Assembly: GCA_045539475.1 (NCBI GenBank) | Contig: JAZQFJ010000085.1 | Location: 22,320 to 86,319, forward strand | Source of the DNA: Eubacteriales bacterium | GTDB taxonomy: Bacteria > Bacillota > Clostridia > Oscillospirales > JAAYXM01 | DNA length: 64,000 bases | Reading direction: 5' to 3' | Shown here: piece after piece, positions 9,477 to 38,419 of the stretch | Numbering within the stretch: the stretch's first letter is position 1 | How the letters are laid out: each line of letters opens with the position of its first letter | Notes under the pieces: generated by a model | The model's input: the letters and a program-made list of their open reading frames with translations, nothing else | Database searches by the model: none | Told to the model about the DNA's origin: nothing | Made by a program: the position numbers and the translations under genes

Positions 9477-9551
9477 ATGAGTGGCAGGGGCAGAGCGCTA
9501 CCCGTCATATCCACAATGTGCCTCAAAGTCGCGCAAACGCTGGGATTATAT
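9477..9551 (+). repeat. R1, left copy of the ~75-bp direct repeat
   Basis: Aligns without gaps to 38345-38419. First 19 nt identical, 37/41 over the core, 59/75 overall (hand count). Confidence 0.85.
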
Positions 9552-9591
9552 GAGTTTGCTCTGATTGATTTAAGCGCTTACATAGCCAGTA

Positions 9592-9930
9592 TTATATTTT
9601 CACTCTTATTTCATTGAACATATCAAGCCATTCATGGGTGATGAGAGCATGACCTGCGGGTGTTGGATGAACTCCATCAAACGACCAATATGTCGGGTTG
9701 TTTGGGTTGTAGACAGAATCAAAATTTTCCTGAAGCGGAACAAACGAAAGCCCGAAATTTTCGGCAATACGTTTTGCTGCAACCGCTTTTTCTTCGATAT
9801 CGGCATGGAACTCGGTATAAATAGATTTATGCTTGTCCGTTTCTTCCATCGCTGGTCCGTCAAGGCAGAACGGCTCAAGAATCATTATTTTAATGTCAGG
9901 CAATGCCGTCAGAATCTCTTCAATCAACAT
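9592..9930 (-). pseudogene. SGNH/GDSL hydrolase C-terminal fragment
   Basis: 112 aa containing only the distal SGNH blocks (DGVHPTPAGH catalytic D..H). There is no GDS block, no RBS, and it starts 11 nt after the stop of the upstream gene. Confidence 0.5.
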
Positions 9931-9941
9931 TGAATGGTTTT

Positions 9942-10589
9942 TTAATTTAGGAGTATCAATTCATCATACACAACCGTGTGCTTTTCATCCGGCTCACTGT
10001 GTTCGTGGTTGTGTCCGGAGTACCAGTGCTTGTATGAAACATTATCTTCGATATATTTCTCCAATTCACCGAGTGAGGGGCAGAACGTAGCATCCGGCGG
10101 TGTCTGTTCATATTTGTGCGTAAGTATAAAATCAAACTTGAATTCATTTTCTTTTATTGTTTCATATGCAAGAGAAAGCTCCTTTGACTCCGGCTCTTCG
10201 CCCGGGTAATACAGACCAATCTTATGCCAGCCTTCCGAAGATTTGCATCCACCGAAAACAAAGAAGTTATTTCCTTGTATTTCAAAAGCATTGCCGCGCA
10301 TCAGGTGGACTATATTATCCGACAGGCGATGAACCCTGCCACCGCACCAATCTTCCTCCGGAAAGCTTTTGAGATAATCAAAGTTTTCGTGATTTCCGTC
10401 GACAATGGCTATGTTCTTCTTTATCGAAAGAAAAAAGTCAGTGAATATGCGGTTCTCTTCCGTCTTTTCGAAAGATAATCCTACATCACCGAGTATAATG
10501 AGTAAATCATTATCATCAGCTTTTGAAATATAATCTTCAAGACCTTTAAAATTCCGGTCTCCATGAATATCACTCAGCAGATATATCAT
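9942..10589 (-). CDS. metallophosphoesterase (calcineurin-like)
   Basis: SDIHGD, GDVG and DGNHEN motifs. 215 aa. Confidence 0.85.
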   Translation of the reverse strand: MIYLLSDIHGDRNFKGLEDYISKADDNDLLIILGDVGLSFEKTEENRIFTDFFLSIKKNIAIVDGNHENFDYLKSFPEEDWCGGRVHRLSDNIVHLMRGNAFEIQGNNFFVFGGCKSSEGWHKIGLYYPGEEPESKELSLAYETIKENEFKFDFILTHKYEQTPPDATFCPSLGELEKYIEDNVSYKHWYSGHNHEHSEPDEKHTVVYDELILLN

Positions 10590-11250
10590 CTCGTATCAAC
10601 CGACCTTTTCCGCTTTTTACAAGCTCAACAAATTCTTCACTTGTTTTTATCTCATAATCTGAAATCATTCCGCTTAAAGCATAGTCATTATCTCGGTGAG
10701 CATCGCTTCCGGCTGTTACATAAAGATTATATTCTTTCGCGGTTGCCACAGCCTTTTCGTTGAAGTTTTTGTGACGGGGATTTGAGTTATATGCCTCATA
10801 ACCTTCAACGTTCCGAGGATCGGTTCTTCCGTATCCCTCGCGATATGGGTGAGCTTGAACGACAAGAACTCCGTTTTCTCTCATATATGGAAAAAATTCT
10901 TCTTCAGTGCTTTGACATATATTCGGAAAGTTATAAATTATTTCGGGCGTTATACCGTACAGAAGATAATCTCCCTCAAACTTTTCAAAATGGCATTCCA
11001 CTCCCATGATTACATTTACACCGAGCTTATCGCCCTCTGTCTTTGCATTTCTGTATCCGAGAAAGAAACGGTCTACTGCGTTTTTCCATGAATTGCTGTC
11101 ATATTCGTCAAGATATTTCTGCATAAAATGGTCGGTTACAATAACCGTTTTATATCCTGCCTTATGATAGAATCTTACCATTTGCGCAGCATCTATCTGA
11201 GCACATGGGCTTGATTCCGACGTGTGTAGGTGTGTTTCGATTTTAAACAT
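10570..11250 (-). CDS. PHP-domain phosphoesterase
   Basis: THLHTSESS...QAHPYR...GSDAH motifs. I prefer ATG 11250 (GAGGA RBS) over the GTG at 11265. 20-nt overlap with the downstream gene. Confidence 0.8.
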   Translation of the reverse strand: MFKIETHLHTSESSPCAQIDAAQMVRFYHKAGYKTVIVTDHFMQKYLDEYDSNSWKNAVDRFFLGYRNAKTEGDKLGVNVIMGVECHFEKFEGDYLLYGITPEIIYNFPNICQSTEEEFFPYMRENGVLVVQAHPYREGYGRTDPRNVEGYEAYNSNPRHKNFNEKAVATAKEYNLYVTAGSDAHRDNDYALSGMISDYEIKTSEEFVELVKSGKGRLIRDDISAE

Positions 11251-11297
11251 TTTATCATTCCTCACATTAGTTTGCTTACTATGAATGGTTAGCTTTT

Positions 11298-13175
11298 TTA
11301 CTCAGACAAGAAAACAGTAGCTATTTTTTTGTGAAAATGGACACCAAGAGAAGGTGTTATGTTATCTTCTGCAAGATAGTAAAGCCGTTCCGCTTCAAGT
11401 TCCTCAATTATGTCAATTTCGCCGTTTATATACGCTGTTAGCTTTCTTATTGCCGTTTCAATACGCGCCTTTGTTCCGCCAGTGCGAAGGTCATAAACAT
11501 CAAAGCCGAATGCTTTGTTCTCTGAATTCCAAAGCTTTTCAAACTTATCGCACATATCACGATAATCAACAAGAAGAGTTTTAAGCTCTTCCGTGAGCTT
11601 TTTCAATTCATTAACATCACGATTGTCGTACGCACGTTTTATGTCTATACCGATTTCCGCCTTTTCATAAAGCACTTTTGTGAGGCTTACGTAATAATCA
11701 AACACTTTTTCAAGTCCCGGCTCTGAAATGTTCCGGAGTTCTTCGTGTTTTTTCTTGTAGTATTCTTTGAGTCCGAGTCCTTCAAAGTTTTTGTCGAATA
11801 TGCCACAAAGGATATCTTGATAAATTATTTCGCGTGAAACAGCACTTAATTTGCTTTTTTCTGCAACTGCGGGGATATTGTCGATTTCGAGTGCGAGGAA
11901 ATTATCAAGATTATGCCCTATGCATAGCTTAAACTGCCGTCTTAGATGCTCTGTATCAACCTTTTCGTAGTAGTTGTACTCTGCAAAAAGCTGTATGCCG
12001 CCGAGCATTGTGAGAACGTTCACTTCCGCTCCGTCATCACCCCACATTGTCGTTATTATGGTGTCAAGTCCTTTCTCGTGGCACACATCAAGGGCAGCAC
12101 ATGTTGTATCAAATGTTTTCTGATATCCGGGTCCCATACCGAACCATGTCCACGCACCGCCGACGAAGATGGTGTTTCTCTGCATCTTGAAATGCTTGTC
12201 TATCATAGAGTGATACATTTTCTTATCTGTGTTGTAATAATCCCAATAAGCGAGTGTTATTTCTTCGGGAATTCGCTCATGCATATTCTCGGGGATTTTT
12301 GCATCAAGGTCATAATACCAGCCATTTTTCGAGCCTAAACGGAAGAACATATCACTCCACATGATCGATTCGAATCCATACTTCTTTGAAATCTCACAAA
12401 CACGGGTGAGATGCTTTGATAAAAGCTCAAATCTGTCGCTGTCGCCGTGAAGGTCGTAATACTTGCCGCGCCCTACGAAGTGAGCTTCATCCATGCCAAT
12501 GAGTATTTTGTCCGATGAGTAAGCTGCTTTGACGGATTTAAACATAGCCTCGATAAACTTGTATGTCTTTTCTTCGTCGATAAGAAGAACGTCATCGTCA
12601 TCCCGCATCTCTGCAGCGTAGCTCCAGCGCAGAGTATTTCGCAAATGTGCAAGGGTCTGAATGCAGGGAATCATTTCAATGCCGAGTGCCTTTGCCGCTT
12701 TGTCCATTTCCTGTATTTCTGCTAATGTATATCTGCCGCGCATATATCCAAAATACGGGTATTCTTTTATTTCATATGTATCTTCGGTATAGAGCATAAC
12801 GGTATTCATACCTGCCGATGCCATCTTACCCATAAGCTTGATAACCGTTTCAACTTTTAATACGGCATTTCGTGAGCAATCCAGCATTGCTCCGCAGGCT
12901 TTCATTTTTGGCACTTCTCGTTTGCAGATATCAGTTTCGCCGCTTTCAAGCAGACCTACAAGCGTACAAACAGCACGGAAAAAGTCATTTTTTTCTGCAT
13001 ATGAAATTACGTATTTGCCGTCTTTTCCTTCTATCGAAAGACCACGCACGATTCTTTTTACGGAAACGCTTATATCTCCGGTTTCTCCGAATTTAAAGCC
13101 TCGTGTTTCGGAAACGATTAAAAGACCGTCCCAAAGGTTTTCTATCTCTTTTTTGTTAAAATGCAGTGAAATCAT
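11298..13175 (-). CDS. GH20-like beta-N-acetylhexosaminidase
   Basis: 625 aa. TIM-barrel region AMLDCSRN...MLYTED...CIQTLAHL...IGMDEAH resembles the GH20 catalytic domain with a D-E pair. Confidence 0.7.
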   Translation of the reverse strand: MISLHFNKKEIENLWDGLLIVSETRGFKFGETGDISVSVKRIVRGLSIEGKDGKYVISYAEKNDFFRAVCTLVGLLESGETDICKREVPKMKACGAMLDCSRNAVLKVETVIKLMGKMASAGMNTVMLYTEDTYEIKEYPYFGYMRGRYTLAEIQEMDKAAKALGIEMIPCIQTLAHLRNTLRWSYAAEMRDDDDVLLIDEEKTYKFIEAMFKSVKAAYSSDKILIGMDEAHFVGRGKYYDLHGDSDRFELLSKHLTRVCEISKKYGFESIMWSDMFFRLGSKNGWYYDLDAKIPENMHERIPEEITLAYWDYYNTDKKMYHSMIDKHFKMQRNTIFVGGAWTWFGMGPGYQKTFDTTCAALDVCHEKGLDTIITTMWGDDGAEVNVLTMLGGIQLFAEYNYYEKVDTEHLRRQFKLCIGHNLDNFLALEIDNIPAVAEKSKLSAVSREIIYQDILCGIFDKNFEGLGLKEYYKKKHEELRNISEPGLEKVFDYYVSLTKVLYEKAEIGIDIKRAYDNRDVNELKKLTEELKTLLVDYRDMCDKFEKLWNSENKAFGFDVYDLRTGGTKARIETAIRKLTAYINGEIDIIEELEAERLYYLAEDNITPSLGVHFHKKIATVFLSE

Positions 13176-14637
13176 AGTTTTTCCAATTCCTTTCTCGTGT
13201 GTTTTTTTGCCTATCTGTTTTAAAAACAGGTAAGAGTGAAGTATAGTTTTCTGTGATTACAGTGTCAATTCCGGAATCAAGATGTTTCTTTACGTCTTCC
13301 TGATCTCCTCTATAAAGCATACTGCACTTTATGCCGCTGCTGTGTGCAAGCAAAAGCGCTTCATATGTGTAGGATGACTCATTAAAACAGATTTTTTGAC
13401 AACCAAGGGATTTTGCTGCAGCCACAGCCTGTTTATCGAGTTTTTTCAAGCAAAGGCAAGTTACAAACTGTGGGTGTTTTTCGGAAAAAGTTTTAAGCAC
13501 ATCTTTGCTTTCAGACGAAAAATACACATATTTTTCGCAGTCATACCGATTGATGAGAGAAATAATCTTTTGGATATCTGTTATATTTTCATCTGGGATA
13601 TGTATATTCATAACTGCGTGACAAGAAAATTTTCTGAGAATTTCAGAAAGAAGCCCATCTTCACCCCCGGGTTTTATTTCAAAGGAAATTTCGTTTACAT
13701 CCAGCGCAATGGCAGCGCCGAAATAAGAAAGCATTTCCTCACAGGGAAAATCGGAAGCCGCTTTGGCGCAAAGTCGGGGATAGGACATAACGGCGTCGGG
13801 GAGAGTTATCGCGCTTCCTCCGGGACGGTAGTTCCAAGGACATCTTCCGCGCTCTACGTATTCATAGTGAGCAGCAAATTCGTTGCCAAATCCCGCCGGT
13901 TTATAATATTTTTCTTTCGGGTCAAACTCAACCGTTTCTAATCCTACACGGCTTTTCATATTAAGAAGAACCTCTCCGCAGGGTGAAACAACCATGCTCC
14001 CGCCTCCTGTGCCGGAGTTTTTGTCCATGCTTACAGATGAACGAAGAAGAAATGCGTTGCAGTTATATGCCGCAAAACGAGAAAAAAGCTCGCTTGTATC
14101 ATGCGGGTCGGAGCGCTGGTGAGAACAACCGATAATAATGTCCACATTTTGCCGTGCAATGCATGAGTAAGCCTCATAAAAATAAAAATCATAGCACGTC
14201 AGAAAGGCAAAACGAAGGCCTTCTGCTTCAATTATGTAGGGAGCAGAAGGAGTCAGTGCGTAATCGCACGAAAGTCCGCGGTTTGTCACTTCTCCGCCTG
14301 TGAGATGACGCTTGAAATACTTTCCGAAAAGCTCTCCGCTCCGATCGAAAGCAAAGGTGGTGTTTTTATTTTCTCCTATTCCGTTCACAAAGACAAATGC
14401 ACTACATCGTTTTGCGACCTGTGCCGCCTTTTCGATAAGTGCGGTGTGATAGGTTCTCACGCATTCGCGAAAAGTTTCATTTGAATCCGGCATTACGGGG
14501 ATATCGCCATACTCCGGCATAACAATAATATCGAGGCTTTCGTCGCAAAGGTCAAGCAGAGAAATCTCTGCTTTGAAAAGCTCGGCGGAACGGGAAATAT
14601 CCGTTGAATATTCAGGTTGTATGATTGCTACTTTCAC
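13156..14637 (-). CDS. carbon-nitrogen hydrolase domain fused to a GDPD-like domain
   Basis: The N-terminal ~280 aa are nitrilase-superfamily-like (MPEYG, FLTCYDFYF with Cys). The C-terminal ~200 aa resemble a glycerophosphodiester phosphodiesterase barrel, but the catalytic His is not evident. GTG start overlaps the araC stop by 26 nt. Confidence 0.55.
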   Translation of the reverse strand: MKVAIIQPEYSTDISRSAELFKAEISLLDLCDESLDIIVMPEYGDIPVMPDSNETFRECVRTYHTALIEKAAQVAKRCSAFVFVNGIGENKNTTFAFDRSGELFGKYFKRHLTGGEVTNRGLSCDYALTPSAPYIIEAEGLRFAFLTCYDFYFYEAYSCIARQNVDIIIGCSHQRSDPHDTSELFSRFAAYNCNAFLLRSSVSMDKNSGTGGGSMVVSPCGEVLLNMKSRVGLETVEFDPKEKYYKPAGFGNEFAAHYEYVERGRCPWNYRPGGSAITLPDAVMSYPRLCAKAASDFPCEEMLSYFGAAIALDVNEISFEIKPGGEDGLLSEILRKFSCHAVMNIHIPDENITDIQKIISLINRYDCEKYVYFSSESKDVLKTFSEKHPQFVTCLCLKKLDKQAVAAAKSLGCQKICFNESSYTYEALLLAHSSGIKCSMLYRGDQEDVKKHLDSGIDTVITENYTSLLPVFKTDRQKNTRERNWKNYDFTAF

Positions 14638-15451
14638 TGATAAAAACCTCTTCTTTTCTTTGCTTTTTCAGAAATTCCGTAGGAGACATTCCTGCGTGTT
14701 TTTTGAATACACGTGAGAAGTAATATGGGTTGCAAAAACCTACTTCATTTGCAGTTTGGGAAATGGAAACGAGTTCGCTTCTGAGGAGTTCTTTTGCGCG
14801 CTCGATCTTTTTTGTATTTAAATATTCAACGGGCGATTTGCCGAAATGCTGTTTGAAGATAGCTCGGAAGTACGCTTCTCCAATACCGCACATAGCCGCC
14901 AATTGCTCGATTTTCATATCGCGTTCGCAGTAGTTTTCCTGAATATAAAGAACCGCAGGGTTGAGCAGGTTTGATTTTTTTGACGGCACGTATTCGCGCT
15001 CGGATCCGGTAAGAAGCAACGACAGTATTTCATACAAGTCACGCAGGTTTTTGATTTGATAAAGATGCGGCTTATGAACGAGCCGTTTTTCAATTTTATT
15101 GAATAAAGATATTATCTTGCTGTTGTCGGAAATTTCAAAAAGAAAGAGAGTATCTGCTTCCGATAAAGCCTGAAACTCAATGATGAGGCATTCTCCCTGG
15201 ACAAGACACGAACGGCTGTAAGAAGATCCGCGTGGCAGAATGATAAGATGATTTTTGTCTATTGTATACGAACCAGAGGGAGTCACGTATTCGGTTATGC
15301 CTTCTGCTTTTATAACCAGTGCCCATGTTCTGCGCGAATCGTTTACCGGTCTGTTTTTCGTAACAGGTCCTTCGCCGCTGATGCGTATCGCGGAATATAT
15401 GTCAGAAATTTTAATATCGCTCAGTGTATCGTTTTTTATATCGGTTGTCAT
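14612..15451 (-). CDS. AraC family transcriptional regulator
   Basis: Cupin-like N-terminus plus C-terminal double HTH (FRAIFKQHFGKSPVEYL...ANEVGFCNPYYFSRVFKKHAGMSPTEF). AGGAGG RBS. Confidence 0.9.
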   Translation of the reverse strand: MTTDIKNDTLSDIKISDIYSAIRISGEGPVTKNRPVNDSRRTWALVIKAEGITEYVTPSGSYTIDKNHLIILPRGSSYSRSCLVQGECLIIEFQALSEADTLFLFEISDNSKIISLFNKIEKRLVHKPHLYQIKNLRDLYEILSLLLTGSEREYVPSKKSNLLNPAVLYIQENYCERDMKIEQLAAMCGIGEAYFRAIFKQHFGKSPVEYLNTKKIERAKELLRSELVSISQTANEVGFCNPYYFSRVFKKHAGMSPTEFLKKQRKEEVFISESSNHTT

Positions 15452-15583
15452 AAAGTACCTCCTTTTTGTTTTTGAAAATAATTATGCCGGAAGGTATAGT
15501 CTCAGTATAGAATATTTTAATTTGAAAATCAAGATGGGGAGCAAATAAAGAGTCGCGAATAAGACAAATCCACGAATTGGACA

Positions 15584-15612
15584 TTTACTTTGCTTTATGA
15601 AACGTCTATACT
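15584..15612 (+). promoter_or_regulatory. candidate sigma-A promoter for the EEP/giant-enzyme operon
   Basis: TTTACT, 17-nt spacer, TATACT, about 50 nt upstream of ATG 15664. Pattern match only. Confidence 0.3.
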
Positions 15613-15663
15613 AAAATTAACAAGCGATTACACTTTCTTAACATTTATTTTGCGGAGGCAAAA

Positions 15664-16425: not shown

Positions 16426-16451
16426 GAATTTGATGTGAAGGAGAATTTAAA

Positions 16452-19400
16452 ATGAAAATAAGAAAGATCATTAGTATGCTGCTTGCACTCTGTATGCTGA
16501 CAACGCTTCTGCCGTCCGTGGCTTTTGCTGATGGAGAGACAGAGACAACAGTTGACCCGATAGTGGTGGATTTCACGAAAACAACCCTTACCACTAACGT
16601 AAGCGGCAATACGTCTTATGAAGGGCTAACAACTCTCGGTTACGAGATAAACCTCAACAAGAGCACAACAAAAGGCGTTCGCGTAAACTTTGTAGGTAAC
16701 GGACTCAATACTGTTCATGACTGTTACACTACGTATTTTGTTAAGGATAAGGCATGGCCTGTTGCGCCCAAGCTTGACAATTTGATGACTACTATAAACG
16801 TTGAGGTTGCAACTGCAGGTTATTATTCTCCGGAACTGATATACGGAACACACAACTCCTGCGGAGATTTTGCTATATACATAAACGGTCAGTATGCAGG
16901 CGAAATAACCGATGCATGGGATGAAAATGTGACTACGAAAACCGATATGCCGGCTAGAACATTCAATACGGTTTATCTCAAAGAAGGTCCAAACGAAATA
17001 AGCTTTAAGTGCATAGCACATAGAAAGGAAGCTGGTAAGGAAACTCTGAGAGCTCAGTCTTATCTCATTCTTAATAAGCTTACTTTCACTTATTGCGATG
17101 AGACTCTTTCTGCAACTGAGTTTTCCCACACTCTTCCCGCTAGGTCGATGTACTTTGGTCAGACGGCAGATTTCTCCGTTTGTGTAAAAATGAGCGATGG
17201 CTCAACGAAAATTTTCGGTAAATATAATGAAGATGGTTCGGAAATAACAACTCCGTATATTACTCTGTCTGAAACTGACGGAATCGGCGAAATAACCAAT
17301 ATGGTACAAGGGAGCAATACCACAACAGCAACCTTCACTCCCAAGGCTGTAGGTCAAGCTAAGATAATTGCATCTGCGTATATTGGCGAAGAACTATTCG
17401 AAAGAACTATTCTTGTCAATGTTCGTGATGAGCAGCCGTTGGCAAAAGTCATCCTTAACATTGACAAGGATAGCATTCCGGCAACTCGCACAGCTCTTGC
17501 TTCAATCGAATTGTTCGATGACGAGGATGGTCTCTTTACGTCAGAATATGATGTCAAATTTGAAAGTTCAAACCCTGAAGCTGCAACTGTTCTTAAATCG
17601 GAAGAAAACCCAAAAGGCGCCATAATCACAGGTGTGGCAAAGGGCACGGCAACGATAAAGGTAACCGCGAATAAAAAAGGCGAAGATAAGGTAGTAACAG
17701 TTGAAAAACAGATAACCGTTTCTGATCCTCCTGTTATAAAAGAACTCTCTTTGAAATTAGATAAAGAGACTTACAAAATAGGGGAAGAAGGTAGCTTCAC
17801 TCTTAGCGGAACGATGTCCGACGGACTTCCCGCTACTGATGAGGAAGTTGCAAAACTTAATATTACATATGAAAATGACACCGCGGCTGTTATAACCCTT
17901 AATGCCGACGAAAAGAAATTTACAACACTTACCGAAGGTGATGCGGAAATAAGTGCAATAGCAGAGGTTGGCACAAAAAGGATTTTTGCAAGAAAAATTG
18001 TAAGAGTTTTCGCACAGGGAACTTCCGTGATTGCCAATTTCGCAAAGACGCAGCTTGTGGTGGACAAAAGTCTCACCGATTCGGTTACAGAAGGCTTTAA
18101 GATAAACTATGAGAATAGCACAACGCGGGGTGCATACGTTGCTCTCGAAGGTGCAGGTCTTCAGGTTAACCACTGGATTACTCCGGCATCGGCAGGTTAC
18201 GCCTGGCCTGCGTATAAGGATAAGAACCTGATGTTTACAATAAGCGTCGAGGCTGAAAAGGCAGGATATTATTCTTCCGAGCTTATCTACGAAGCCTACA
18301 ACAAAAGTGGAGATTTCATTATATATATAAACGACCAGTTCGCAGGATTCATACAAGCCTATGACGAGACACAGACCAAGGGTGTGCAGCACACTAAAAA
18401 GCTCAATAGTGTTTATTTGGACCGCGGTCCAAACGAAATAAGCTTTAGATGTGCAAAGCATTACAGAAAGGACAGTCTGGGGCGTTTAGACAGCACGTGG
18501 CTCATCCTTGATAAGCTAACGCTCACTCCGTGTGGAGAAGCGCTTTCTGCAAAAAGCTTTTTACATAATCTTCCTGAGAAAATATGTAAAGGGCAGGAGC
18601 TTGATTTTGCACTCTCTGTTAAAATGAGCGACGACTCCACAAAGCTTTTTGGGCAATATAAAGAAGACGGAACGGAGATTACCGAAACTCCCATATCGCT
18701 TGAGGTCGTTTCAGAAAACGGAGTCATAGAAGACATAGAGCAGCTGCAAGATGGAGTAAAAGGGAAGCTTGTTGCACAGGGTTCCGGAACTCTGCAGATA
18801 AAAGCGGTAGCGAATGTCGACGGAAATCTGTTTGAAGATACAATTGAGGTCGAGGTTCTTGATGAAACACTCAATACAACACGTCCTGAAATTTCCGCAA
18901 CGGTATTTAAGGGTGATGTCATAGAACTTAAAACGGTCAACACTCTGACAAACGGAGAAGCTTTGGACCTTCCGGCTTCATATACTGTTTTCTCATCAAG
19001 TAATCCGGACATTGCAAAGATTGATGGCAATATACTTACTGCAGTAGGGGCAGGAACGGTTGCTATCACTGCAACGACAACGCTTGCAGGTGTAACTCAG
19101 ACAGGCTCAATTGAAATAACAATCCTTGATGAAGATGTTAAAACTCTTGATCTTACAGCGGGCGGAAGCCGGCATATCCGATTGACGAATATTGAAGGGG
19201 ACACCGTTCCGATGTTTGTCAAGGGCATTACAAACAAGGGCGCTGAGGTCGAGTTCGCGCCCGGGGATGCGAAAATCACCTATGAAGCACTCAATCCCGA
19301 GGTTGCAACAATAGATGACAATGGTATTATAACGCCCGTTGAACCGGGAAATGCCAAATTCAGGGTTAAAGCGATTTTCCGTGGAAGAGAAATAACGTCT

Positions 19401-23819: not shown

Positions 23820-23826
23820 CAGAAAA

Positions 23827-23887
23827 AGAGAGGGGCAAGCTTGAATTTAGTGTTTCGCTCCTGAGTTTTTCCAAGCCCCTCTCTTTT
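23827..23887 (+). terminator. long-loop terminator after the giant gene
   Basis: AGAGAGGGGC / GCCCCTCTCT stems with a 38-nt loop and a short T run. Confidence 0.5.
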
Positions 23888-23926
23888 CTAAATAAATCTT
23901 ATAAAATTACGCGAGGAGAAAACTAA

Positions 23927-25027: not shown

Positions 25028-25093
25028 GTAATAAATCGGTTAGCACACTTATGTGTTAATATAAAAAACAAACCTAAGGAGGATAAACAAAAA

Positions 25094-26653: not shown

Positions 26654-26692
26654 GAGCTGCGAAAATTATAAGAAAATAAGGAGAGATATACA

Positions 26693-29413
26693 ATGAAAAA
26701 ACTAATCAGCATTTTCCTTATCCTCTGCATGATGGCAACGCTTCTGCCAACAGTCGCTTTTGCGGAAGATGGTGATACGGAAAACGTTGTTCCGATAGTG
26801 GTGGATTTTACAAAAACAACCCTTCCAACCGGCTCAGCTGCGAACACGTCTTATGAGGGAATAGTAACCCCCGGCTACGAGATAAACACCGACAAAAGTA
26901 CAACAAAAGGTGTTCGTGTAAACTTTGTTGGTAACGGTCTTAACACTATTCATGATCAAGGTTATGGTTCGCTGTCTGCAAAGAAAACCTGGCCTGGGGA
27001 AAAAGATAGTGAATATGTAAAAAACCTTATGCTAACTATAAACGTTGAGGTGGCAACTGCAGGTTATTATTCTCCGGAATTGATATATGGAACTAACTGC
27101 TACTGCGGAGATTTTGCAATATACATAAACGATCAGTATGCAGGTGAAATAACCGATGCATACAATGCGGACTCAACTGCTAAAGCAGAAGCGGATCCTA
27201 TGACGCTCAATACTATTTACCTCAAAGAAGGCAAGAACGAAATAAGCTTCAAGTGCACACTGCACAGAGGAACAAGAACCCAGTCTTATCTTCTTCTCAA
27301 CAAGCTGACGTTCACGCCTTGTGAAGAAACATTTGTCCCGGTTACGTTCACTACCTCGGCTTTTCCTGAAAGAGTAGTTGCAGGCGAGGCTGTAAACTTT
27401 GAAATTTCGGCAGATATTGATGAAAGCCAGACGAAAATTTCCGGTACATATAGCACATACAACGAAGACGGCTCAAATATGGAAACAAACCTCACCGTAG
27501 CATCGGAAAACGGCACCTTTGAGATAAACGAACAGAGCGCAAGTGTTGTAAAGGGTACATTCACTGCTACGAAAGGTGGCGCGGCAACAATAACTGCAAC
27601 GGCAAATGTTAATGGAAAGACCTATACACAGACCATCGAAACCACGGCTGTTGCGCCGATAGTAGCTACTTTTTCAAAGAACAATGCTGTATCTGGAGCA
27701 ACCAAGTACAACTACGATGCGCTTGCAGGAAGAAATTACACGGTTGTTGAGACGAAAAGCCGAGAAAAGGCGAATTTCATGATGAACAACGGTGATTATT
27801 TCCAGACGGAAATGTATTACATAGGATCCACCGGTTTAGCGTGGCCGCAACCAGGTAAGTCCGGAGAACACGGATTGTTGTTCACAATAAGCATTAATGT
27901 TGATGTGCCCGGAAATTATTCGCCTGAGTTTTTATACAAAGCTACAAACATAGGAGGAGACTTTACAGCATATATAAACGACTATGCCGCAGGTGAAATT
28001 AAGGGTTACGAAGCCGGAAATGCAACTGGAGTAAATAAGGAGACAACATTCAATACGGTTTATCTTAATGAGGGACCAAACGAGATAAGTTTCCGACTCA
28101 CAGGAACTTATCGAAGAGAAAATACGAATAAATATGAAGGAACATGGTTCTATCCACAAATACTCACCTTCACTCCTGTTGATGCAGTACCCACTCCGGT
28201 TGGCTTTACCACCACGCTTACAGAGGCAAAGGCAGGTGAGCCGGTTGAGTTTACTGTCAAGCCTGTCATGAGTGATGACTCGGATATGTATTTCGGCATA
28301 TATGATGATGCGGGTACTAAAATCACCGACAAGCCTATTTCCCTTACCACAAACGGCGGCACAATAACAAACCTCACAAGAACAACAGAGGGCGTAAGTG
28401 GTACCTTCACCGCAACAGAGGCAGGAACCGCAAAAATCACCGCCTCTACAACCATCAACGGAGCACCATGCACAGATACCTTCGACGTAATCGTCACCTC
28501 CGATGAGGATGAAGAAGTAACCCTTCCGGCAACAATCACAATGTCAGTGACAGGCACTGCGGGACAGGTTACTGTAGATGAAACTGTACAGAATAGCGCA
28601 ACGGCTACATACAACAGAAACGTAGGTGATTCCGTAACCGTAGAAGCAAAAGACATTGACGGCAAAATCTTCCGCGGTTGGCTTCGCGGCGGCGAAAATG
28701 GCACGGTAGTATGGCTTGATAATAAATATACATTTACGGCTGCAACAAATGTTGCGCTCTATGCAAAGTATACCGATGCACCGGTTGAAAACACAGAAGC
28801 AAAAGAGTATTATGATTGGAACGGCGAATTCCTCGCATATGACTCGTATGACAGCGCAAATCTTTCAAAATACGGCTTTAAGTTCGATAAATGGCTCTCT
28901 AATGTGGTTGAAAACATTACAAGATATGTGGCGGATTATGTAGCAGCTGATAAAAAGTATACCATAACAAAACCAGACGGCTCAAAGCTTGAGAATGTTG
29001 CACATGAAAGCTCGGTAACATTGACGAACCAGACTGCTGTTTCGTGGTATGTCAATGGCAGCCTCGTGGCTTACGGCGAAAACTACACCTTCTATGCAAC
29101 AGAAGATGCAATAGTAACAATTGACAATAAGGTGCAGGAAGGTCCGATTGTAAACCTTACTAACCCTGACGGAGATACCTACATCCTTGAATACAACGCA
29201 AACGGCAAAACTGTCATCGAAAAGGGTATTATCTTCGGTGAGGGTACACCATCAGTCACAAGCTGTTCTTATAAGGTCATTTCCCAGAGGAATGATGCTT
29301 TCGGAAAGCTTATGGCAGAAAATGACGGAAATTGTGCAAAAGTCCGCGGATATATAATCTATAAAGACGGAAATACCCACAGAGTGGTATATGCCGACAT
29401 AGCAGCACAGTAA
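26693..29413 (+). CDS. secreted multidomain CBM-like/Ig-like protein, paralogue of the giant enzyme N-terminus
   Basis: 906 aa. Signal peptide. CBM-like modules at aa 33-209 and 322-495. Ig-like spacers. The C-terminal FRGW...LYAKY repeat resembles Listeria-Bacteroides (InlB B) repeats. No SLH or sortase signal. Confidence 0.8.
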   Translation: MKKLISIFLILCMMATLLPTVAFAEDGDTENVVPIVVDFTKTTLPTGSAANTSYEGIVTPGYEINTDKSTTKGVRVNFVGNGLNTIHDQGYGSLSAKKTWPGEKDSEYVKNLMLTINVEVATAGYYSPELIYGTNCYCGDFAIYINDQYAGEITDAYNADSTAKAEADPMTLNTIYLKEGKNEISFKCTLHRGTRTQSYLLLNKLTFTPCEETFVPVTFTTSAFPERVVAGEAVNFEISADIDESQTKISGTYSTYNEDGSNMETNLTVASENGTFEINEQSASVVKGTFTATKGGAATITATANVNGKTYTQTIETTAVAPIVATFSKNNAVSGATKYNYDALAGRNYTVVETKSREKANFMMNNGDYFQTEMYYIGSTGLAWPQPGKSGEHGLLFTISINVDVPGNYSPEFLYKATNIGGDFTAYINDYAAGEIKGYEAGNATGVNKETTFNTVYLNEGPNEISFRLTGTYRRENTNKYEGTWFYPQILTFTPVDAVPTPVGFTTTLTEAKAGEPVEFTVKPVMSDDSDMYFGIYDDAGTKITDKPISLTTNGGTITNLTRTTEGVSGTFTATEAGTAKITASTTINGAPCTDTFDVIVTSDEDEEVTLPATITMSVTGTAGQVTVDETVQNSATATYNRNVGDSVTVEAKDIDGKIFRGWLRGGENGTVVWLDNKYTFTAATNVALYAKYTDAPVENTEAKEYYDWNGEFLAYDSYDSANLSKYGFKFDKWLSNVVENITRYVADYVAADKKYTITKPDGSKLENVAHESSVTLTNQTAVSWYVNGSLVAYGENYTFYATEDAIVTIDNKVQEGPIVNLTNPDGDTYILEYNANGKTVIEKGIIFGEGTPSVTSCSYKVISQRNDAFGKLMAENDGNCAKVRGYIIYKDGNTHRVVYADIAAQ

Positions 29414-29423
29414 TATATACGAA

Positions 29424-29461
29424 AAATGCGGCGGGGCATTATCACGCCTCGCCGCATTTTT
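29424..29461 (+). terminator. rho-independent terminator
   Basis: AAATGCGGCGGGGC / GCCTCGCCGCATTT (one mismatch) followed by a T run. Confidence 0.8.
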
Positions 29462-29489
29462 CATAACAGAAGTTAACGGGTGAAGAATC

Positions 29490-30440: not shown

Positions 30441-30494
30441 TGTGAAAAAGAAGAGCTGTAATAATTAACAACGAACACAGAGAGGAAATCAAAC

Positions 30495-32477: not shown

Positions 32478-32499
32478 TACAATTGGAGGTGTCAGTTTT

Positions 32500-33171
32500 T
32501 TGACAGAAATATATTTTATCCGTCATGCGGAATCCACCGGTAATATGACAGGTTGCGCCTATGGTTGGTATGATGGCCTCGTAGCACCGAATGGATATGA
32601 ACAGATTAAGCGTCTTGAAAAAAGATTTGAAAATATAAAAGTGGATGCGGTGTATTCAAGCGACCTTATAAGAGCTGTAAAAACCGCCGAGGCAATACAT
32701 AAGCCAAAAGGTCTTGCTCTGAATAAAGATACGGGGCTTCGTGAAATGAATCTCGGTGCATGGGAGAACAAAAAGTGGGAAGAGCTTCCGTCTGCTTTTC
32801 CGGAAGAGCATAAGCTCTGGACAAGCGACCCGTTAAACTTCAGTGTTGAAGGCAGTGAAACTTACCGCGAGGTATATGACCGTATGCGCCGGACTTTTGA
32901 CAGAATCGTTGCCGAAAACGACGGAAAAACCGTCGCGATTGTAGCTCACGGCGTTGCACTTCGTATACTTATGTACGGCATTCTGAACAACGGTGACCTT
33001 TCGGGCATTGCCGGGTTTGGATGGGGAGACAACACATGTGTAAGTCACTTTACGGCAGATGGCGGAAAGCTGAAATCTGTTTTTGTAAATGATAATTCCC
33101 ATCTTAAGGATATGCCCGGATTTAAGAAAAGCACGACATGGGGAAGTACAAGAGAAAGCGTGTTGCTTTAG
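32500..33171 (+). CDS. histidine phosphatase family protein (phosphoglycerate mutase-like)
   Basis: IYFIRHAESTGN catalytic RHG-type motif and a distal AHG. TTG start at 32500, 8 nt after GGAGGTG. The track ORF extends upstream to 32401 inside the previous gene. Confidence 0.8.
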   Translation: MTEIYFIRHAESTGNMTGCAYGWYDGLVAPNGYEQIKRLEKRFENIKVDAVYSSDLIRAVKTAEAIHKPKGLALNKDTGLREMNLGAWENKKWEELPSAFPEEHKLWTSDPLNFSVEGSETYREVYDRMRRTFDRIVAENDGKTVAIVAHGVALRILMYGILNNGDLSGIAGFGWGDNTCVSHFTADGGKLKSVFVNDNSHLKDMPGFKKSTTWGSTRESVLL

Positions 33172-33202
33172 ATGGATAAGAGGGAATTGGAGGTAAATGT
33201 AT

Positions 33203-35248
33203 ATGAAAAGCAAAGTAAATGATATTTTATCAAAGCTTACACTTGATGAAAAAATCTCACTTCTGACGGGTGGAGATTATATGGCAACGGTCGGGCTTGA
33301 ACGTTTCGGTCTCAAACCTAAAAGAATGGCAGATGGACCTCACGGTGTGCGTAAAGATTCGGCAACCGGAGCCAACTCGCGTGAAGAAGCGGAAAGTAAC
33401 TGCACAGCTTTTCCAAATCTTTGCCTTGCTGCGGCAACATGGGATAAAGAGCTTATACATAAAATGGGCGTGGCGCTTGCGAAAGACTGTATCCACAACG
33501 ATGTTGATATGCTTTTAGGACCGGGTGTGAACATAAAGCGGCACGCCCTCTGTGGAAGGAATTTTGAGTATTTCTCGGAAGACCCCGTTCTCGCGGGAGA
33601 AATGGCGGCTGCATACATAAACGGACTCCAAGGCCTCGGGGTTGCGGCATCGCTTAAGCACTATGCCGCTAACAATCAGGAAAAATACCGCCTTACAACA
33701 AGTGTGGATGCAGATATGCGGACGCTTATGGAAATTTATCTCAAGGCGTTTGAAATCGCAATTAAAAAGTCATCTCCGGCAACCGTTATGTGTGCGTACA
33801 ACAAGATTCATTCCGTCTGGTGTTCCGAAAACAAGTTTTTGCTTACCGAAGTTCTTCGCGATTCATGGGGATATAACGGTGTTGTAGTCTCTGACTGGGG
33901 GGCTGTGCATAATTCGGCGAAGGCTGTTTCGGCAGGTCTTGATTTGCGTATGCCAAAGGGAAAAGATTTTGTAAAGGATATAAAAGAAGCTCTTGAGAAT
34001 GGCGTAATAACGGAAGAAGAAATCGAAATCTCGGCAAAAAGAATGATAGAGCTTTTGATGATGATTCCTGAAACTAATATAAGCTATGACAGAGATGAAC
34101 AGCATAAGGTTTGCCGTGAGGTTGCAGCAGAAGGAATGGTGCTTCTCAAAAACCGTGATAACACATTGCCGATAACACCTGATAAGTATAAAAAGGTTGC
34201 TATCATAGGTGAATTTGCAAAATCACCGCTGATATTTGGGCAGGGAAGTGCCGAGGTTCATGTTTCCGATGATTATATCGATTCACCGATTGATGAGCTT
34301 CGTAAGCTTTGCGGAGATGAAATTGAGTTTAAATATATGGAGCTTTACAAGAAAGATGCATTTTTAAAGGAAATGCTTTGGTTAAAGCATCCGGAATTCG
34401 CGAAGTTCATTGCAGACACAGATCTTGTCATTATGTTTGTGGGTGCAATGGAATCCGAGGATACTGAGAAGCTTGATCGAAGGTGCGCAGAGCTTAATCA
34501 GAACTACGAAATGTTTATCAACTTTGCACTTATGGATAATAAAAAGGTTGTTGTTGTTAATCAGTCCGGTTCTGCAATGACCTTTGACAGATGGACGAAC
34601 GACGTTGACGCCGTCGTTCAAATGTGGCTCGGCGGCGAAAGTGCAGGCGGCGCAATAGCAGATGTTTTGTGCGGCATCGTTAACCCGTCGGGAAAGCTTT
34701 CCGAAACATTTCCGAAGAAAATAAGAGCTGATATCGAGTTTCCGGGAAATGACCTTACCGTAGAGTATAACGAGCGTATCTTTGTTGGATACAGATATTA
34801 TGATATGCATCCGGAAGAAATCGTATATCCTTTCGGCTATGGACTGTCATATACCACATTTGAGTACAGCAATATAGAAGTTTCGGAAAAGGATAATTCT
34901 CTGGAAATCACATTTGACATAAAAAATACAGGCGATATAGACGGCGCTGAAGTTGCGCAGGTGTATGTCGGGGACCCTGTATCTACGGTCAAGCGTCCGG
35001 TGAAGGAATTAAAAGCATTTGAAAAAGTTTTCCTGAAAGCCGGCGAAAGAAAATCAGTAGCGCTTAATGTGGATATAAAGGATATAGGCTATTATAATGT
35101 AATTTTAAAAAACTGGATAACAGAACCGGGAAAATATGTAATATATGTCGGTTCATCCTCAAGAGACATCCGCCTTAAAAAGTCAATTATTCTCCGAAAT
35201 GATGTTCCTTATACAATCGCGCCGACCGGCGAGGATATGATAGGATAA
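33203..35248 (+). CDS. GH3 beta-glucosidase/beta-hexosaminidase-type glycoside hydrolase
   Basis: LKHYAANNQE and VVSDWGA (nucleophile Asp) motifs, plus a C-terminal FnIII-like domain. ATG 33203 has better RBS spacing than 33197. Confidence 0.9.
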   Translation: MKSKVNDILSKLTLDEKISLLTGGDYMATVGLERFGLKPKRMADGPHGVRKDSATGANSREEAESNCTAFPNLCLAAATWDKELIHKMGVALAKDCIHNDVDMLLGPGVNIKRHALCGRNFEYFSEDPVLAGEMAAAYINGLQGLGVAASLKHYAANNQEKYRLTTSVDADMRTLMEIYLKAFEIAIKKSSPATVMCAYNKIHSVWCSENKFLLTEVLRDSWGYNGVVVSDWGAVHNSAKAVSAGLDLRMPKGKDFVKDIKEALENGVITEEEIEISAKRMIELLMMIPETNISYDRDEQHKVCREVAAEGMVLLKNRDNTLPITPDKYKKVAIIGEFAKSPLIFGQGSAEVHVSDDYIDSPIDELRKLCGDEIEFKYMELYKKDAFLKEMLWLKHPEFAKFIADTDLVIMFVGAMESEDTEKLDRRCAELNQNYEMFINFALMDNKKVVVVNQSGSAMTFDRWTNDVDAVVQMWLGGESAGGAIADVLCGIVNPSGKLSETFPKKIRADIEFPGNDLTVEYNERIFVGYRYYDMHPEEIVYPFGYGLSYTTFEYSNIEVSEKDNSLEITFDIKNTGDIDGAEVAQVYVGDPVSTVKRPVKELKAFEKVFLKAGERKSVALNVDIKDIGYYNVILKNWITEPGKYVIYVGSSSRDIRLKKSIILRNDVPYTIAPTGEDMIG

Positions 35249-35281
35249 AAAGTTGTTTCTTGTTAAGAAAGGAAAAGAAAA

Positions 35282-37156
35282 ATGAAGCTCGAAAATATGT
35301 TTTTTGAAGTCAGATATGTTGATGCAAAGGGAGAAGCTTTTGAGATTTCTTCAAAATCACAAATAAATTCAGAAACCGATAAGTATGCAAAAAAGTATGC
35401 TGAAAAAGTGATTTCCGGCTGCTCGTCCGATGGTGAACTTGTAAGTGTAAATCTTAACTTGTCCGTGCCTGAAAGCATCCGTGAAAAGCTTGGTGAGCAT
35501 TTTTGCGATAACGAAGAGTGCTATGCAGTAGAAATCACGACGGATGAGGTAAATCTTTATGCATTGTCGGATAACGGACTTACTTACGCCGTATCAACGC
35601 TTCTTCAGCTTATTGAAAGCGGAAATGTTCGTGAAATGCTTCTGTTTGACTATCCTGATAAGAAGGTGCGCGGATATCGTGTATATACTCCGGGGCGTGA
35701 GAGCTTTGAAGCCTTCCGCAATGTAGTTGATATGCTTGTATACTATAAGTATAATGCAATAATGCTTGAAGTTGGTGGTGCGATGGAATATAAACGCCAT
35801 CCCGAGATAAACGAAAAATGGGTGGAGTTCTGCAAGGAAGTAAACAAAACTCCGTATGAGGCAGAGCGAATCCAGAAAAAGACGCATCCCGAGTGGCAGA
35901 AGAACTCAATTCATGCAGATAATGGCAATGGATCATTTATAACGCAGGCTGAAATGCGCGAGCTTATAGCATATTGCCGCGAGCGCGGGCTTCGCGTCAT
36001 GCCGGAGGTTCCGTCGCTTTCTCACTGTGATTATATCGTTATGGCGCATCCTGACATCAAAGAGCGCGCTGAGGATACATATCCCGATACATACTGCCCG
36101 TCAAATCCGAAGTCATACGAGCTTGTATTTGATATTCTCGATGAGGTAATCGACGTTTTTGAGCCGGAGTATGTAAACATCGGCCACGATGAATGTTACA
36201 CTCTCGCAAAATGCCCTCTTTGCCGAGATAAGGACCCGGTGGATTTGTACGTTGGAGATATCGAAAAGATAAATAATTACCTGAAAGCTAAAGGCATAAA
36301 AAGTATTATGTGGGCAGAAAAATTCTTTGATAATATCTATCTGCCTGAACCGGATGGTTCAATCCACGGTTACGGCGGAACAGGAGATCCGGCGTGGGAT
36401 GTACCGAGGTGTATCGACTGTGTCGGAAAGGTACCGAAAGATATATTGCTGTTCCATTGGTATTGGTCACTTTGTACGGGAAAGGAAGAAAAGGATATCC
36501 GTGACCTCGGATATAAGATGCTTTTCGGGAATTTCCAGGCTACATCGCTTAAGAACTATCGTGAAAGAAGTAATGACATAGAAGGTGCCTTTATCAGCAA
36601 CTGGGGGTCGTTTGAACCGCAGTATATGCAGCGTAATGCGCAGAACTACAACCTGACGTCAACTGCATATATTCTTTGGAACAGTGAATATGATTCGGAT
36701 ATGATGGATATGGTTGTTGATAAGGTAAAGGATGAGCTTTATCGAAGACACAAAAAAACACTCGGTAATGATATTATCGAGCTTGTCCATACGACGGACC
36801 ATAACAGACCGTACAAGGTATTCTATGACGGTTTCTATATTGTTCCTGAGGATTGGGAAATCGGAAAGCATATTGTTACATATACCGACGGAACAACGGC
36901 AGAGCTTCCTGTAATATTTGGGTATAATATTCGCTCAAGCTCGGAAAAAATCAGTGTAGACAGCGGCTCAACCGAAGCAAAATCAACAGCGTATGTAGAA
37001 ACTTTGGGTGCATCTATTCCTGTTGTCATTGACAGAAAAGCATATTACAAAACAGCATATAAAAACCCCTATCCGGAAAAAACAATAGAAAAAATAGAGT
37101 GCATTGCATATGACGGCATAAACATAGAAGCAAGCTATGATCTTGCCGTGAAATGA
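35282..37156 (+). CDS. GH20-like glycoside hydrolase
   Basis: 624 aa. TIM-barrel region YNAIMLEVGG...PEVPSLSHCDY...NIGHDECY resembles the GH20 catalytic core. Confidence 0.6.
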   Translation: MKLENMFFEVRYVDAKGEAFEISSKSQINSETDKYAKKYAEKVISGCSSDGELVSVNLNLSVPESIREKLGEHFCDNEECYAVEITTDEVNLYALSDNGLTYAVSTLLQLIESGNVREMLLFDYPDKKVRGYRVYTPGRESFEAFRNVVDMLVYYKYNAIMLEVGGAMEYKRHPEINEKWVEFCKEVNKTPYEAERIQKKTHPEWQKNSIHADNGNGSFITQAEMRELIAYCRERGLRVMPEVPSLSHCDYIVMAHPDIKERAEDTYPDTYCPSNPKSYELVFDILDEVIDVFEPEYVNIGHDECYTLAKCPLCRDKDPVDLYVGDIEKINNYLKAKGIKSIMWAEKFFDNIYLPEPDGSIHGYGGTGDPAWDVPRCIDCVGKVPKDILLFHWYWSLCTGKEEKDIRDLGYKMLFGNFQATSLKNYRERSNDIEGAFISNWGSFEPQYMQRNAQNYNLTSTAYILWNSEYDSDMMDMVVDKVKDELYRRHKKTLGNDIIELVHTTDHNRPYKVFYDGFYIVPEDWEIGKHIVTYTDGTTAELPVIFGYNIRSSSEKISVDSGSTEAKSTAYVETLGASIPVVIDRKAYYKTAYKNPYPEKTIEKIECIAYDGINIEASYDLAVK

Positions 37157-37167
37157 GGAAAAAAGAA

Positions 37168-38058
37168 ATGCTCGTCAAGAAAATTGATATTCACGTCCAC
37201 ACAACCTTTTGGGCAGATGATATGCAGCGCTTTAATGGCGCGAGATTTGCTACTCCGGAAGAGCTTTGCGAGATATATGACCGTATGGGAATAGAACTCG
37301 GTGTACTTTTGCCGGCAGTAAACCCCGAAGCAGCTTTTCACAACAACACAAACCGCGATTGTTGTGAAATTGCGGAAAGGTATCCTGAAAGATTTGTGTG
37401 GTTCTGTAACATAGACCCTCGCATGGGAAAGAATTCACCCGATACAGATTTCACACATTTTTTGGAATACTATAAGGCTCAGGGGGCAAAAGGTGTGGGA
37501 GAGGTTACTGCAAATATGTATTTTGATGACCCGATGGTTGAAAATCTCTTTTCTCACGCGGAAAAGGCAGGACTTCCGGTAACGTTTCATATAGGAAATC
37601 CGGGCAACGACATTGGGCTTATTGATGAAGTGGGGCTTCCGCGCCTTGAAAAAGCGTTGCAGAAATTTCCGAAGCTTATTTTTCTCGGTCATTCACAGAA
37701 ATTCTGGGCAGAGATAAGCGGTGAAGTAGGAAATCGTGACGGCTATCCCAAAGGTGAAGTTCTTCCGGGTGGAAGGCTTATTGAGCTTATGAGAAAATAT
37801 CCAAATCTTCATGGCGATTTGTCATCGGGGAGCGGGCAAAATGCAATTATGCGCGATCCGGCCTTCGGTTATAAGTTCTTGGATGAGTTTCAAGACAGGC
37901 TCTACTTCGGCACGGATATTTGTACGCCCAATCAATGGGAGCGTCTTGTGCTTTCGGAATTCCTCGACAATGCGGTTGAAAACAGCCATATCTCGCAGGA
38001 GTGCTACAACAAGGTGTGCCGTGAAAATGCAATAAGACTTCTTAAACTAGATGATTAA
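37168..38058 (+). CDS. amidohydrolase family (Amidohydro_2-like) metal-dependent hydrolase
   Basis: IDIHVHT metal-binding motif. GAGGA RBS precedes ATG 37168. An alternative ATGA-overlap start exists at 37153. Confidence 0.75.
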   Translation: MLVKKIDIHVHTTFWADDMQRFNGARFATPEELCEIYDRMGIELGVLLPAVNPEAAFHNNTNRDCCEIAERYPERFVWFCNIDPRMGKNSPDTDFTHFLEYYKAQGAKGVGEVTANMYFDDPMVENLFSHAEKAGLPVTFHIGNPGNDIGLIDEVGLPRLEKALQKFPKLIFLGHSQKFWAEISGEVGNRDGYPKGEVLPGGRLIELMRKYPNLHGDLSSGSGQNAIMRDPAFGYKFLDEFQDRLYFGTDICTPNQWERLVLSEFLDNAVENSHISQECYNKVCRENAIRLLKLDD

Positions 38059-38184
38059 GATAAGATTATGGCGAATGTGATTGAATTTGCTGTGAATTTT
38101 GCTTGTGCTGAGCAGGCAATACGCCTATAATCTTTACAAAATTGCGACAGACAGCAGAATAGTCATCGTATCCGCAGAACAAAA

Positions 38185-38215
38185 AACAGAGGTTATTTTA
38201 TCCCCTCTGTTTTTA
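38185..38215 (+). terminator. terminator of the glycan operon
   Basis: AACAGAGG / CCTCTGTT stem followed by a T run. Confidence 0.65.
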
Positions 38216-38298
38216 TCCGTTCACAGGCTTTTTTTAATTATTTTTCGTAGGATCTACTTGGTTACTCAAACTTTTATTATAGAGCCCAAAAACAAAAA

Positions 38299-38324
38299 CC
38301 ACAGTGAAATTTCACTGTGGTTTT
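38299..38324 (+). terminator. orphan canonical terminator with no upstream ORF
   Basis: CCACAGTGAA / TTCACTGTGG perfect 10-bp stem, 2-nt loop, then TTTT. Lies 11 nt upstream of the R2 palindrome. Confidence 0.6.
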
Positions 38325-38335
38325 GCATACCCAAC

Positions 38336-38419
38336 ATTGTGGATATGAGTGGCAGGGGCAGAGTGACACCCGACATATCCACAATATAGCGCAAATGCGC
38401 TTGAATGCTGGATTTATAT
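38336..38419 (+). repeat. R2, right copy of the direct repeat, embedded in a 50-bp palindrome
   Basis: 12-bp perfect arms ATTGTGGATATG (38336-38347) / CATATCCACAAT (38374-38385) with a 26-nt spacer. 38345-38419 aligns to R1. The right end overlaps the Fic stop codon. Confidence 0.85.

Follow-up and report, generated by a model that had tools for sequence, protein, structure and literature searches.

What placed two related, directly repeated sequences at the two edges of a large glycan-utilisation locus? The window analysed here is a 64,000-nucleotide stretch of contig JAZQFJ010000085.1 (positions 22,320 to 86,319 of the forward strand, assembly GCA_045539475.1) from a Eubacteriales bacterium, and the repeat in question, which we call R, is present as a left copy (R1) and a right copy (R2) on either side of the locus. 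The original prediction had reported this pair at the inner edges of what it took to be two mobile modules, and had suggested that the locus was inserted, or could be excised, by recombination between the two copies. Our analysis demonstrates that R1 and R2 are a real, diverged and non-coding junction repeat with two copies in the window, and that both copies lie inside a single large element that splits a spore-protein gene. As to their origin, we tentatively favour the reading that R1 and R2 are passive hybrid joints, left when two diverged copies of a module-boundary sequence recombined in a single crossover.

All the counts given for the alignment by the original prediction were reproduced. 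R1 (9477-9551) and R2 (38345-38419) align without gaps, with 59 of 75 positions identical, and lie in direct orientation 28,868 bp apart. Nucleotides 1-19 (ATGAGTGGCAGGGGCAGAG) are the same in both copies, which start on the plus strand at 9477 and 38345, and the first 41 nt form a core in which 37 of 41 positions (90%) agree (9477-9517 in R1, 38345-38385 in R2). The full ungapped unit is somewhat longer, covering 93 nt with 70 identical positions (75%), and extending it leftward or deeper into the neighbouring Fic gene gave no significant similarity (p = 0.09 and 0.52 for the extension into Fic). The two copies of this unit are:

9465-9557, plus strand: R1, the left copy of the 93-nt unit, which on the minus strand lies 35-127 nt downstream of a GDSL-like open reading frame (ORF)
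38333-38425, plus strand: R2, the right copy of the 93-nt unit, in which 38414-38425 are the Fic stop codon and the last three Fic codons (K-L-I-stop)

Such a pair is not expected by chance, as the 19-mer with up to three mismatches occurs at two sites in the 64-kb window against none expected from 100 shuffles, and the best 93-nt ungapped match between shuffled intergenic pairs reached at most 48 identical positions against the 70 observed. The identity is also unevenly distributed, with 37 of 41 positions conserved in the core but only 33 of the remaining 52 (Fisher p = 0.003). There is no mismatch in the 19-nt block and there are four in the next 22 nt, while the flanks on both sides are about 60% identical, that is, ∼40% divergent.

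Both copies are set between convergent genes, R1 between DUF6076 (plus strand) and a GDSL-lipase-like fragment (minus strand) and R2 between an amidohydrolase gene (plus strand) and Fic (minus strand):

7854-9137, plus strand: DUF6076 gene, the last gene to the left of R1
9592-9930, minus strand: GDSL-lipase-like ORF, the first gene of the glycan locus by R1, in which the C-terminal half alone of the domain is encoded (model positions 92-178 of 178)
37153-38058, plus strand: amidohydrolase gene, the last gene of the glycan locus, adjoining R2
38414-39139, minus strand: Fic-family gene of 241 aa, with a strong promoter-like site at 39203-39175

The convergent intergenic setting claimed earlier is thus correct for both copies, except that the last 6-12 nt of R2 overlap the stop and last three codons of Fic. 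This minus-strand end of Fic is the only coding sequence inside the unit. The R1 sequence AAACTCATATAA corresponds to the Fic end AAATTGATATAA at 10 of 12 positions, and K-L-I-stop can be read in both copies.

Together with the original prediction came an alternative, in which both copies descend from the 3′ end of a plus-strand protein-coding gene family and survive as relics. In its favour, one plus-strand frame reads alike in both copies, with nine of the 16 mismatches at its third codon position. The count is correct, but it does not amount to a significant bias (p = 0.05 for one position and ∼0.15 when corrected over three). The frame was also described as having no start codon and stops upstream, which is true of R1, where a stop lies four codons upstream, but R2 in this frame carries a 49-codon ORF starting with GTG, which is not conserved. 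Stop codons are present in both R copies, and a phmmer search with the 33-aa peptide against 1.84 billion representative proteins returned nothing except a spurious FG-GAP/VCBS-type repeat protein, which matched via its own repeats. An origin as the end of a plus-strand gene is barely credible on these three counts (stops, codon bias and protein search) and comes close to being refuted.

The bracketed segment is:

9558-38332, not stranded: glycan-utilisation cargo of 28.8 kb, between R1 and R2

It encodes two GH20 proteins, one GH3 protein, a 2455-aa protein with S-layer homology (SLH) and heparinase-like domains, a solute-binding protein, GFO/IDH oxidoreductases, an AraC regulator and the amidohydrolase, and homologues of one of its genes are annotated as Oscillospiraceae or Clostridiales. 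The window, with its SLH domains and a spore-protein gene, comes from a spore-forming Firmicute. The GC content of the cargo is 0.40-0.48 versus 0.33-0.39 in the flanking arms. At R1 it steps from ∼0.33-0.34 to 0.40-0.48, and just past R2 it drops again, reaching ∼0.34 by 39-40 kb, so that R1 and R2 are the exact meeting points of the AT-rich backbone and the GC-richer cargo. The claim that R brackets the whole glycan locus is borne out, as the copies sit at both the compositional and the homology boundaries. Pfam scans of all ORFs of at least 90 aa identified no integrase, transposase or recombinase between or beside the R copies.

To the right, the homology boundary is defined by relatives of the genes on either side of R2. 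The Fic protein has thousands of close relatives, and in nine contigs that carry one (Fic 83-95% identical in amino acids and 78-88% in nucleotides), representing five downstream contexts, similarity to the window ends at the Fic stop (38413-38423) in 9 of 9, with the DNA that follows differing between contexts. R is absent beside Fic in all nine. In IMG/VR the search for Fic relatives gave a single match, of 37% identity. Similarity to relatives of the amidohydrolase (up to 87.6% nucleotide identity) likewise ends at that gene's stop (38052-38058), and none of four such relatives has R beside it. As both similarities end at stop codons, R2 lies at a true module joint and is part of the conserved sequence of neither neighbour. 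To the left, a DUF6076 relative stays similar across the AT-rich spacer at least as far as 9329, the point at which that contig ends; the relatives of this gene are two short contigs only, both ending before R1, and the IMG/VR and plasmid collections hold no match to DUF6076. From the cargo side, a contig from a second sample (Logan run ERR11553668) that is 98.9% identical to the window covers 9538-10831 and runs from the cargo into R1, therefore the joint between R1 and the cargo exists outside the source genome.

Run ERR11553668 has contigs that match the window at 97-99% identity. One break in them falls within R1, at 9538, and another at the DUF6076 stop (9137), where there is a 19-bp hairpin; these breaks could be due to low coverage of AT-rich DNA or to strain variation. 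The truncated form of the GDSL-lipase-like gene is also found in this second sample.

The two flanking "mobile modules" of the original prediction turned out not to be separate. Together they make up the two arms, left and right, of a single large-serine-recombinase element of ∼50.5 kb (∼4688-55199), which is inserted in a small acid-soluble spore protein (SASP) gene and has both R copies in its interior. The two ends of this element are:

4547-4687, plus strand: 5′ part of an alpha/beta-type SASP gene, forming the left junction, with the junction repeat GGTCAGATGGTT at 4676-4687
53571-55241, plus strand: large serine recombinase gene at the right end, with the 3′ part of the SASP gene as its final ∼17 codons (55188-55241) and the junction repeat GGTCAAATGATT at 55188-55199

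The SASP gene is cut after ...SIGGQMV at 4687, leaving a truncated form that matches Pfam positions 4-48 of 59 (79 bits), and its missing end, ...KKMIESYEQNLSK-stop, is found as the final codons of the recombinase ORF, in frame. Rejoining the two halves restores a full-length protein (positions 4-59 of 59, 103 bits). As the rejoined SASP is full length and junction repeats are present at both ends, the ∼50.5 kb are a single recombinase-bounded insertion. The recombinase itself carries the Pfam domains Resolvase, Recombinase and Zn_ribbon_recom. The left arm (to 9137) encodes a Phd/ParE toxin-antitoxin pair, a DUF5906 primase-like protein and DUF6076. The right arm (from 38414) begins with Fic, Mor-like and HTH_17 proteins, DUF960, an amidoligase, a glutamine amidotransferase and a small resolvase, and continues with a type I restriction-modification system, a second Fic protein and the large serine recombinase.

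Known intervening elements of sporulating bacteria, namely skin in sigK, SPbeta in spsM and gin in gerE, are excised by large serine recombinases (PMC5025042, PMC4191935, PMC5595907). The enclosing element, as opposed to R, resembles them in having its recombinase gene at one end and in splitting a sporulation-related gene that rejoins in frame; judged by this architecture it would be an element of the same kind. It differs in that its target is an alpha/beta-type SASP gene and its cargo includes the 28.8-kb glycan locus. No recombination directionality factor was identified for it. The element's own junctions (4676-4687 and 55188-55199) are unrelated in sequence to R, and R is an internal unit of 93 nt while the junctions are at the SASP gene, which rules out R as an attachment site of the large serine recombinase.

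Several further observations concern the element as a whole. A human faecal contig labelled 'Bacteriophage sp.' (MT837325.1) encodes a 54%-identical recombinase (4348-6039, minus strand) with a SASP-like tail, ...KKMIKAYEESMK-stop, which on sequence grounds suggests a recombinase clade targeting SASP genes. The block of Fic, DUF960, amidoligase, glutamine amidotransferase and small resolvase (38414-44359) recurs in several unrelated metagenome contigs with varied neighbours, and may be a self-contained sub-module or small mobile unit. Within the type I system, a RhuM-family gene (49824-50864, minus strand) lies between hsdS and hsdM and a DUF2806 gene lies between hsdR and hsdS.

A quite different explanation would place R in a dispersed family of intergenic repeats, belonging to the host or to the mobile-element pool and similar to repetitive extragenic palindromes (REP) or miniature inverted-repeat transposable elements (MITE), with its presence at the two edges reflecting a recombination hot spot or coincidence. 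In common with such families, R is a short non-coding sequence in the intergenic space of convergent genes and has in one copy a hairpin with a perfect 12-bp inverted repeat, and the divergence of R1 from R2 is what is seen in old repeat families. If R were dispersed, further copies should be found. However, the exact 19-mer gave only chance matches, in GC-rich genomes, across 185,579 GTDB species representatives, the JGI metagenomes and IMG/VR. A degenerate pattern of the core matched only a phage terminase gene in IMG/VR, and blastn of both copies against plasmid and phage collections and against ∼120 kb of fetched related contigs found nothing credible. A dispersed repeat, named beforehand as the outcome that would count against the original prediction, is therefore unsupported in the collections scanned, which do not include the source genome. 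Moreover, only two copies are present in 64 kb, R1 has no inverted repeat, no target-site duplication is visible, and it would take a coincidence for two random copies to fall in the same orientation at both edges of the cargo. We consider membership in a dispersed family improbable.

How, then, did a diverged repeat come to stand at both edges of the cargo? In the reading that we tentatively favour, the backbone of the element would have had a ∼90-nt non-coding sequence directly 3′ of Fic, and a second DNA molecule, the donor, would have carried the glycan block beside a diverged, ∼75% identical relative of that sequence. One Campbell-type crossover in the longest block shared by the two, the 19-nt identity within the 41-nt core, would then have inserted the glycan block and left one hybrid copy at each edge in the same orientation. 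As both R copies end in the Fic-like stop and three codons, both parental copies would have come from Fic-adjacent DNA. The distribution of mismatches (0 of 19, then 4 of 22, then flanks with ∼40% divergence) fits a crossover of already-diverged copies, and fits less well an exact duplication that decayed in situ. The R copies would now probably be passive, with R2 acting as the 3′ untranslated region of Fic and R1 as an unstructured relic, and the whole 50.5 kb would move, if at all, via the large serine recombinase at the SASP junctions and not via R. Excision between R1 and R2 today is possible in principle but probably inefficient or rare, because they share only 19 identical bases and there is no dedicated enzyme. 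The crossover, the donor copy and the present inactivity are what we infer from the two copies and their positions.

Several points weigh against this account. Neither a third copy of R nor a donor molecule nor an empty site came to light, which leaves just two sequences from which to read the crossover, and as the nine Fic-relative contigs are without R, the proposed recipient copy is documented in this window only. The copy number of R applies to the 64-kb window and not to the rest of the host genome. Finally, a conserved 41-nt core from which similarity decays on both flanks fits selection on a functional core equally well.

This last point leads to the possibility that R is a functional non-coding element that has been kept twice, either as a 3′ untranslated RNA element of two minus-strand units or as a protein-binding DNA site. 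The core is indeed significantly better kept than the flanks on both sides, and both copies are positioned just 3′ of minus-strand genes. The structures that bear on such a function are found at R2:

38336-38385, not stranded: palindrome in R2 of 50 bp, with perfect 12-nt arms ATTGTGGATATG / CATATCCACAAT and a 26-nt loop
38295-38324, minus strand: predicted intrinsic terminator, a 13-bp stem followed by a T run, which would end the Fic transcript just past R2

The palindrome is that described in the original prediction, and its 26-nt loop holds most of the conserved 19-mer. Folding of the R2 region is predicted to be well in excess of chance on either strand (z = -5 to -6; minus strand z = -5.9). 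Read on the minus strand, the order is the last codons and stop of Fic, a small hairpin, the 12-bp hairpin and the canonical terminator (38324-38295), and R2 is thereby predicted to be, in effect, a ∼120-nt structured 3′ untranslated region of Fic. The fully conserved 19-nt stretch in the hairpin loop is C-rich (CUCUGCCCCUGCCACUCAU), like the C-rich seeds of Firmicute small RNAs. A scan for RNA-RNA duplexes between the minus-strand loop of R2 and 48 start regions gave a best value of -25 kcal/mol (z ∼-3), with a ribosome-binding region.

Against this function, R1 has the right arm (12/12) but not the left (7/12), it shows no excess of predicted structure (z = 0.1 to 0.3) and has no equivalent of the terminator, so that R1 is probably, on the folding predictions, a relic without structure. 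The original prediction had placed a break in similarity inside the left arm of R1; the right arm alone is indeed kept, but the break is not a sharp one, because the 12 nt further left are still identical at 7 positions. The small hairpin is likewise not conserved in register. No Rfam 15 family matches R at gathering thresholds; with the cut-off relaxed to E ≤10, the highest-scoring family is Spot 42 (25.8 bits, threshold 80), in R2 only. On neither strand is R directly preceded by a promoter-like site, the Fic relatives are without R, and a single duplex at z = -3 among 48 targets is weak. A functional element kept twice is thus unlikely, though it deserves to be taken seriously. The best duplex partner of the R2 loop is the start of the DUF2806 gene (47704-48696, minus strand), which is probably a chance match.

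Alternatively, R1 and R2 could be active site-specific recombination sites, res-like sites for a resolvase in the element or for an enzyme encoded elsewhere, with the glycan block being excised or exchanged as a cassette. A candidate enzyme is present:

43736-44359, plus strand: small serine resolvase of 207 aa in the right arm, the candidate enzyme for R

The res sites of Tn3-family and Sin/beta-type systems offer a parallel, in that R is directly repeated on one molecule, contains 12-nt arm motifs within a 41-nt core of 90% identity and shares its element with a small serine resolvase that is 5.3 kb away. In addition, two further sites for the arm 12-mer, an exact one at 5027 and one with a single mismatch at 54336, lie towards either end of the element. 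However, neither R copy adjoins the resolvase gene, the distances being 5.3 kb and 34 kb. A serine-recombinase crossover site would be expected to have dyad symmetry, which R1 lacks, and no multi-subsite architecture was recognised. No recombinase gene stands beside either copy or within the bracketed segment, there is no R-like motif near the resolvase gene (43.5-44.4 kb contains no arm 12-mer, even with one mismatch allowed), R is missing from relatives that share the resolvase module, and the two extra 12-mers are within coding sequence and marginally above chance. We therefore regard active sites as a doubtful proposition, with little probability of being correct.

Altogether the arm 12-mer (ATTGTGGATATG) has five matches against 0.45 expected, an excess that becomes marginal without the three in R. 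The two outside R are an exact match in the Phd antitoxin gene (5027-5038, plus strand) and a match with one mismatch in the large serine recombinase gene (54336-54347, plus strand).

The more general form of this idea would assign the 41-nt core, as crossover site, to a dedicated system of cargo exchange, in which the resolvase or another enzyme swaps ∼30-kb metabolic blocks in and out of large-serine-recombinase elements in gut or rumen Clostridia; this is a speculative extension to which we give slightly less credence still. An exact complement of the core to the 3′ end of tRNA-Trp could hint at the origin of the site within such a cargo-exchange reading.

The same match allows R to be viewed as what remains of a decayed attachment site that arose from the 3′ end of tRNA-Trp; it would be the fossil of an older, integrase-borne island whose integrase was lost. 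The core contains TGGCAGGGGCAGAG (9482-9495 and 38350-38363), whose reverse complement matches the last 14 nt of tRNA-Trp genes exactly, CCA included, and in Firmicutes tRNA-Trp usually ends with the last 11-12 of these nt (TGCCCCTGCCA). The match was, however, noticed post hoc, through three of eight chance database matches being tRNA-Trp 3′ ends, and a rough estimate of its chance probability is ∼0.01. ARAGORN identified no tRNA in the window and no tRNA or tmRNA was seen, no Rfam tRNA match was obtained at E ≤10, nothing T-arm-like precedes the 14-mer, there is no tRNA-like structure around it and no tyrosine integrase is present. A tRNA-Trp gene for comparison was absent from the contigs of the fetched relatives. 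R as a known RNA or tRNA is rejected, as neither an Rfam family nor an ARAGORN tRNA was found, and descent of R from an attachment site in tRNA-Trp is very improbable.

Beyond tRNA-Trp, the arrangement does have features of a genomic island that was integrated at a gene's 3′ end by Campbell-type recombination and is flanked by attL and attR. Two direct copies bracket compositionally distinct foreign genes, a 19-nt identical core is followed by diverged similarity on one side, and the unit overlaps the 3′ end of a gene, here the Fic stop and three codons. As a possible target gene, Fic is intact at R2, and R1 keeps only the stop and three codons (10 of 12 positions identical). In contrast to such islands, there is no integrase beside or inside the block and no tRNA or tmRNA, Fic itself belongs to the mobile-element backbone, and the similarity is weakly two-sided.

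Within the cargo, the 2455-aa SLH/heparinase-like ORF and a 906-aa ORF with no Pfam match have diverged N-terminal segments in common (16457-17268 versus 26692-27268). These segments are 72-86% identical in nucleotides and make up the repeat families D1, D3, D5 and D10; the two ORFs encode paralogous surface proteins of the cargo.

Taken alone, the repeat is a minor feature, with two copies, no linked enzyme and no demonstrated activity, and its main value is as a marker with which empty-site and donor forms could be found in other genomes. The SASP-splitting element with its glycan cargo, an element of a known kind, is arguably of more interest than R. Should this reading of the joints hold, they would document how a mobile element residing in a spore-protein gene came to carry a large polysaccharide-degradation locus, the host of that element being an uncultured, spore-forming bacterium of the class Clostridia. 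If true, this would be a concrete case of glycan-utilisation capacity becoming horizontally transferable in anaerobic Firmicutes.

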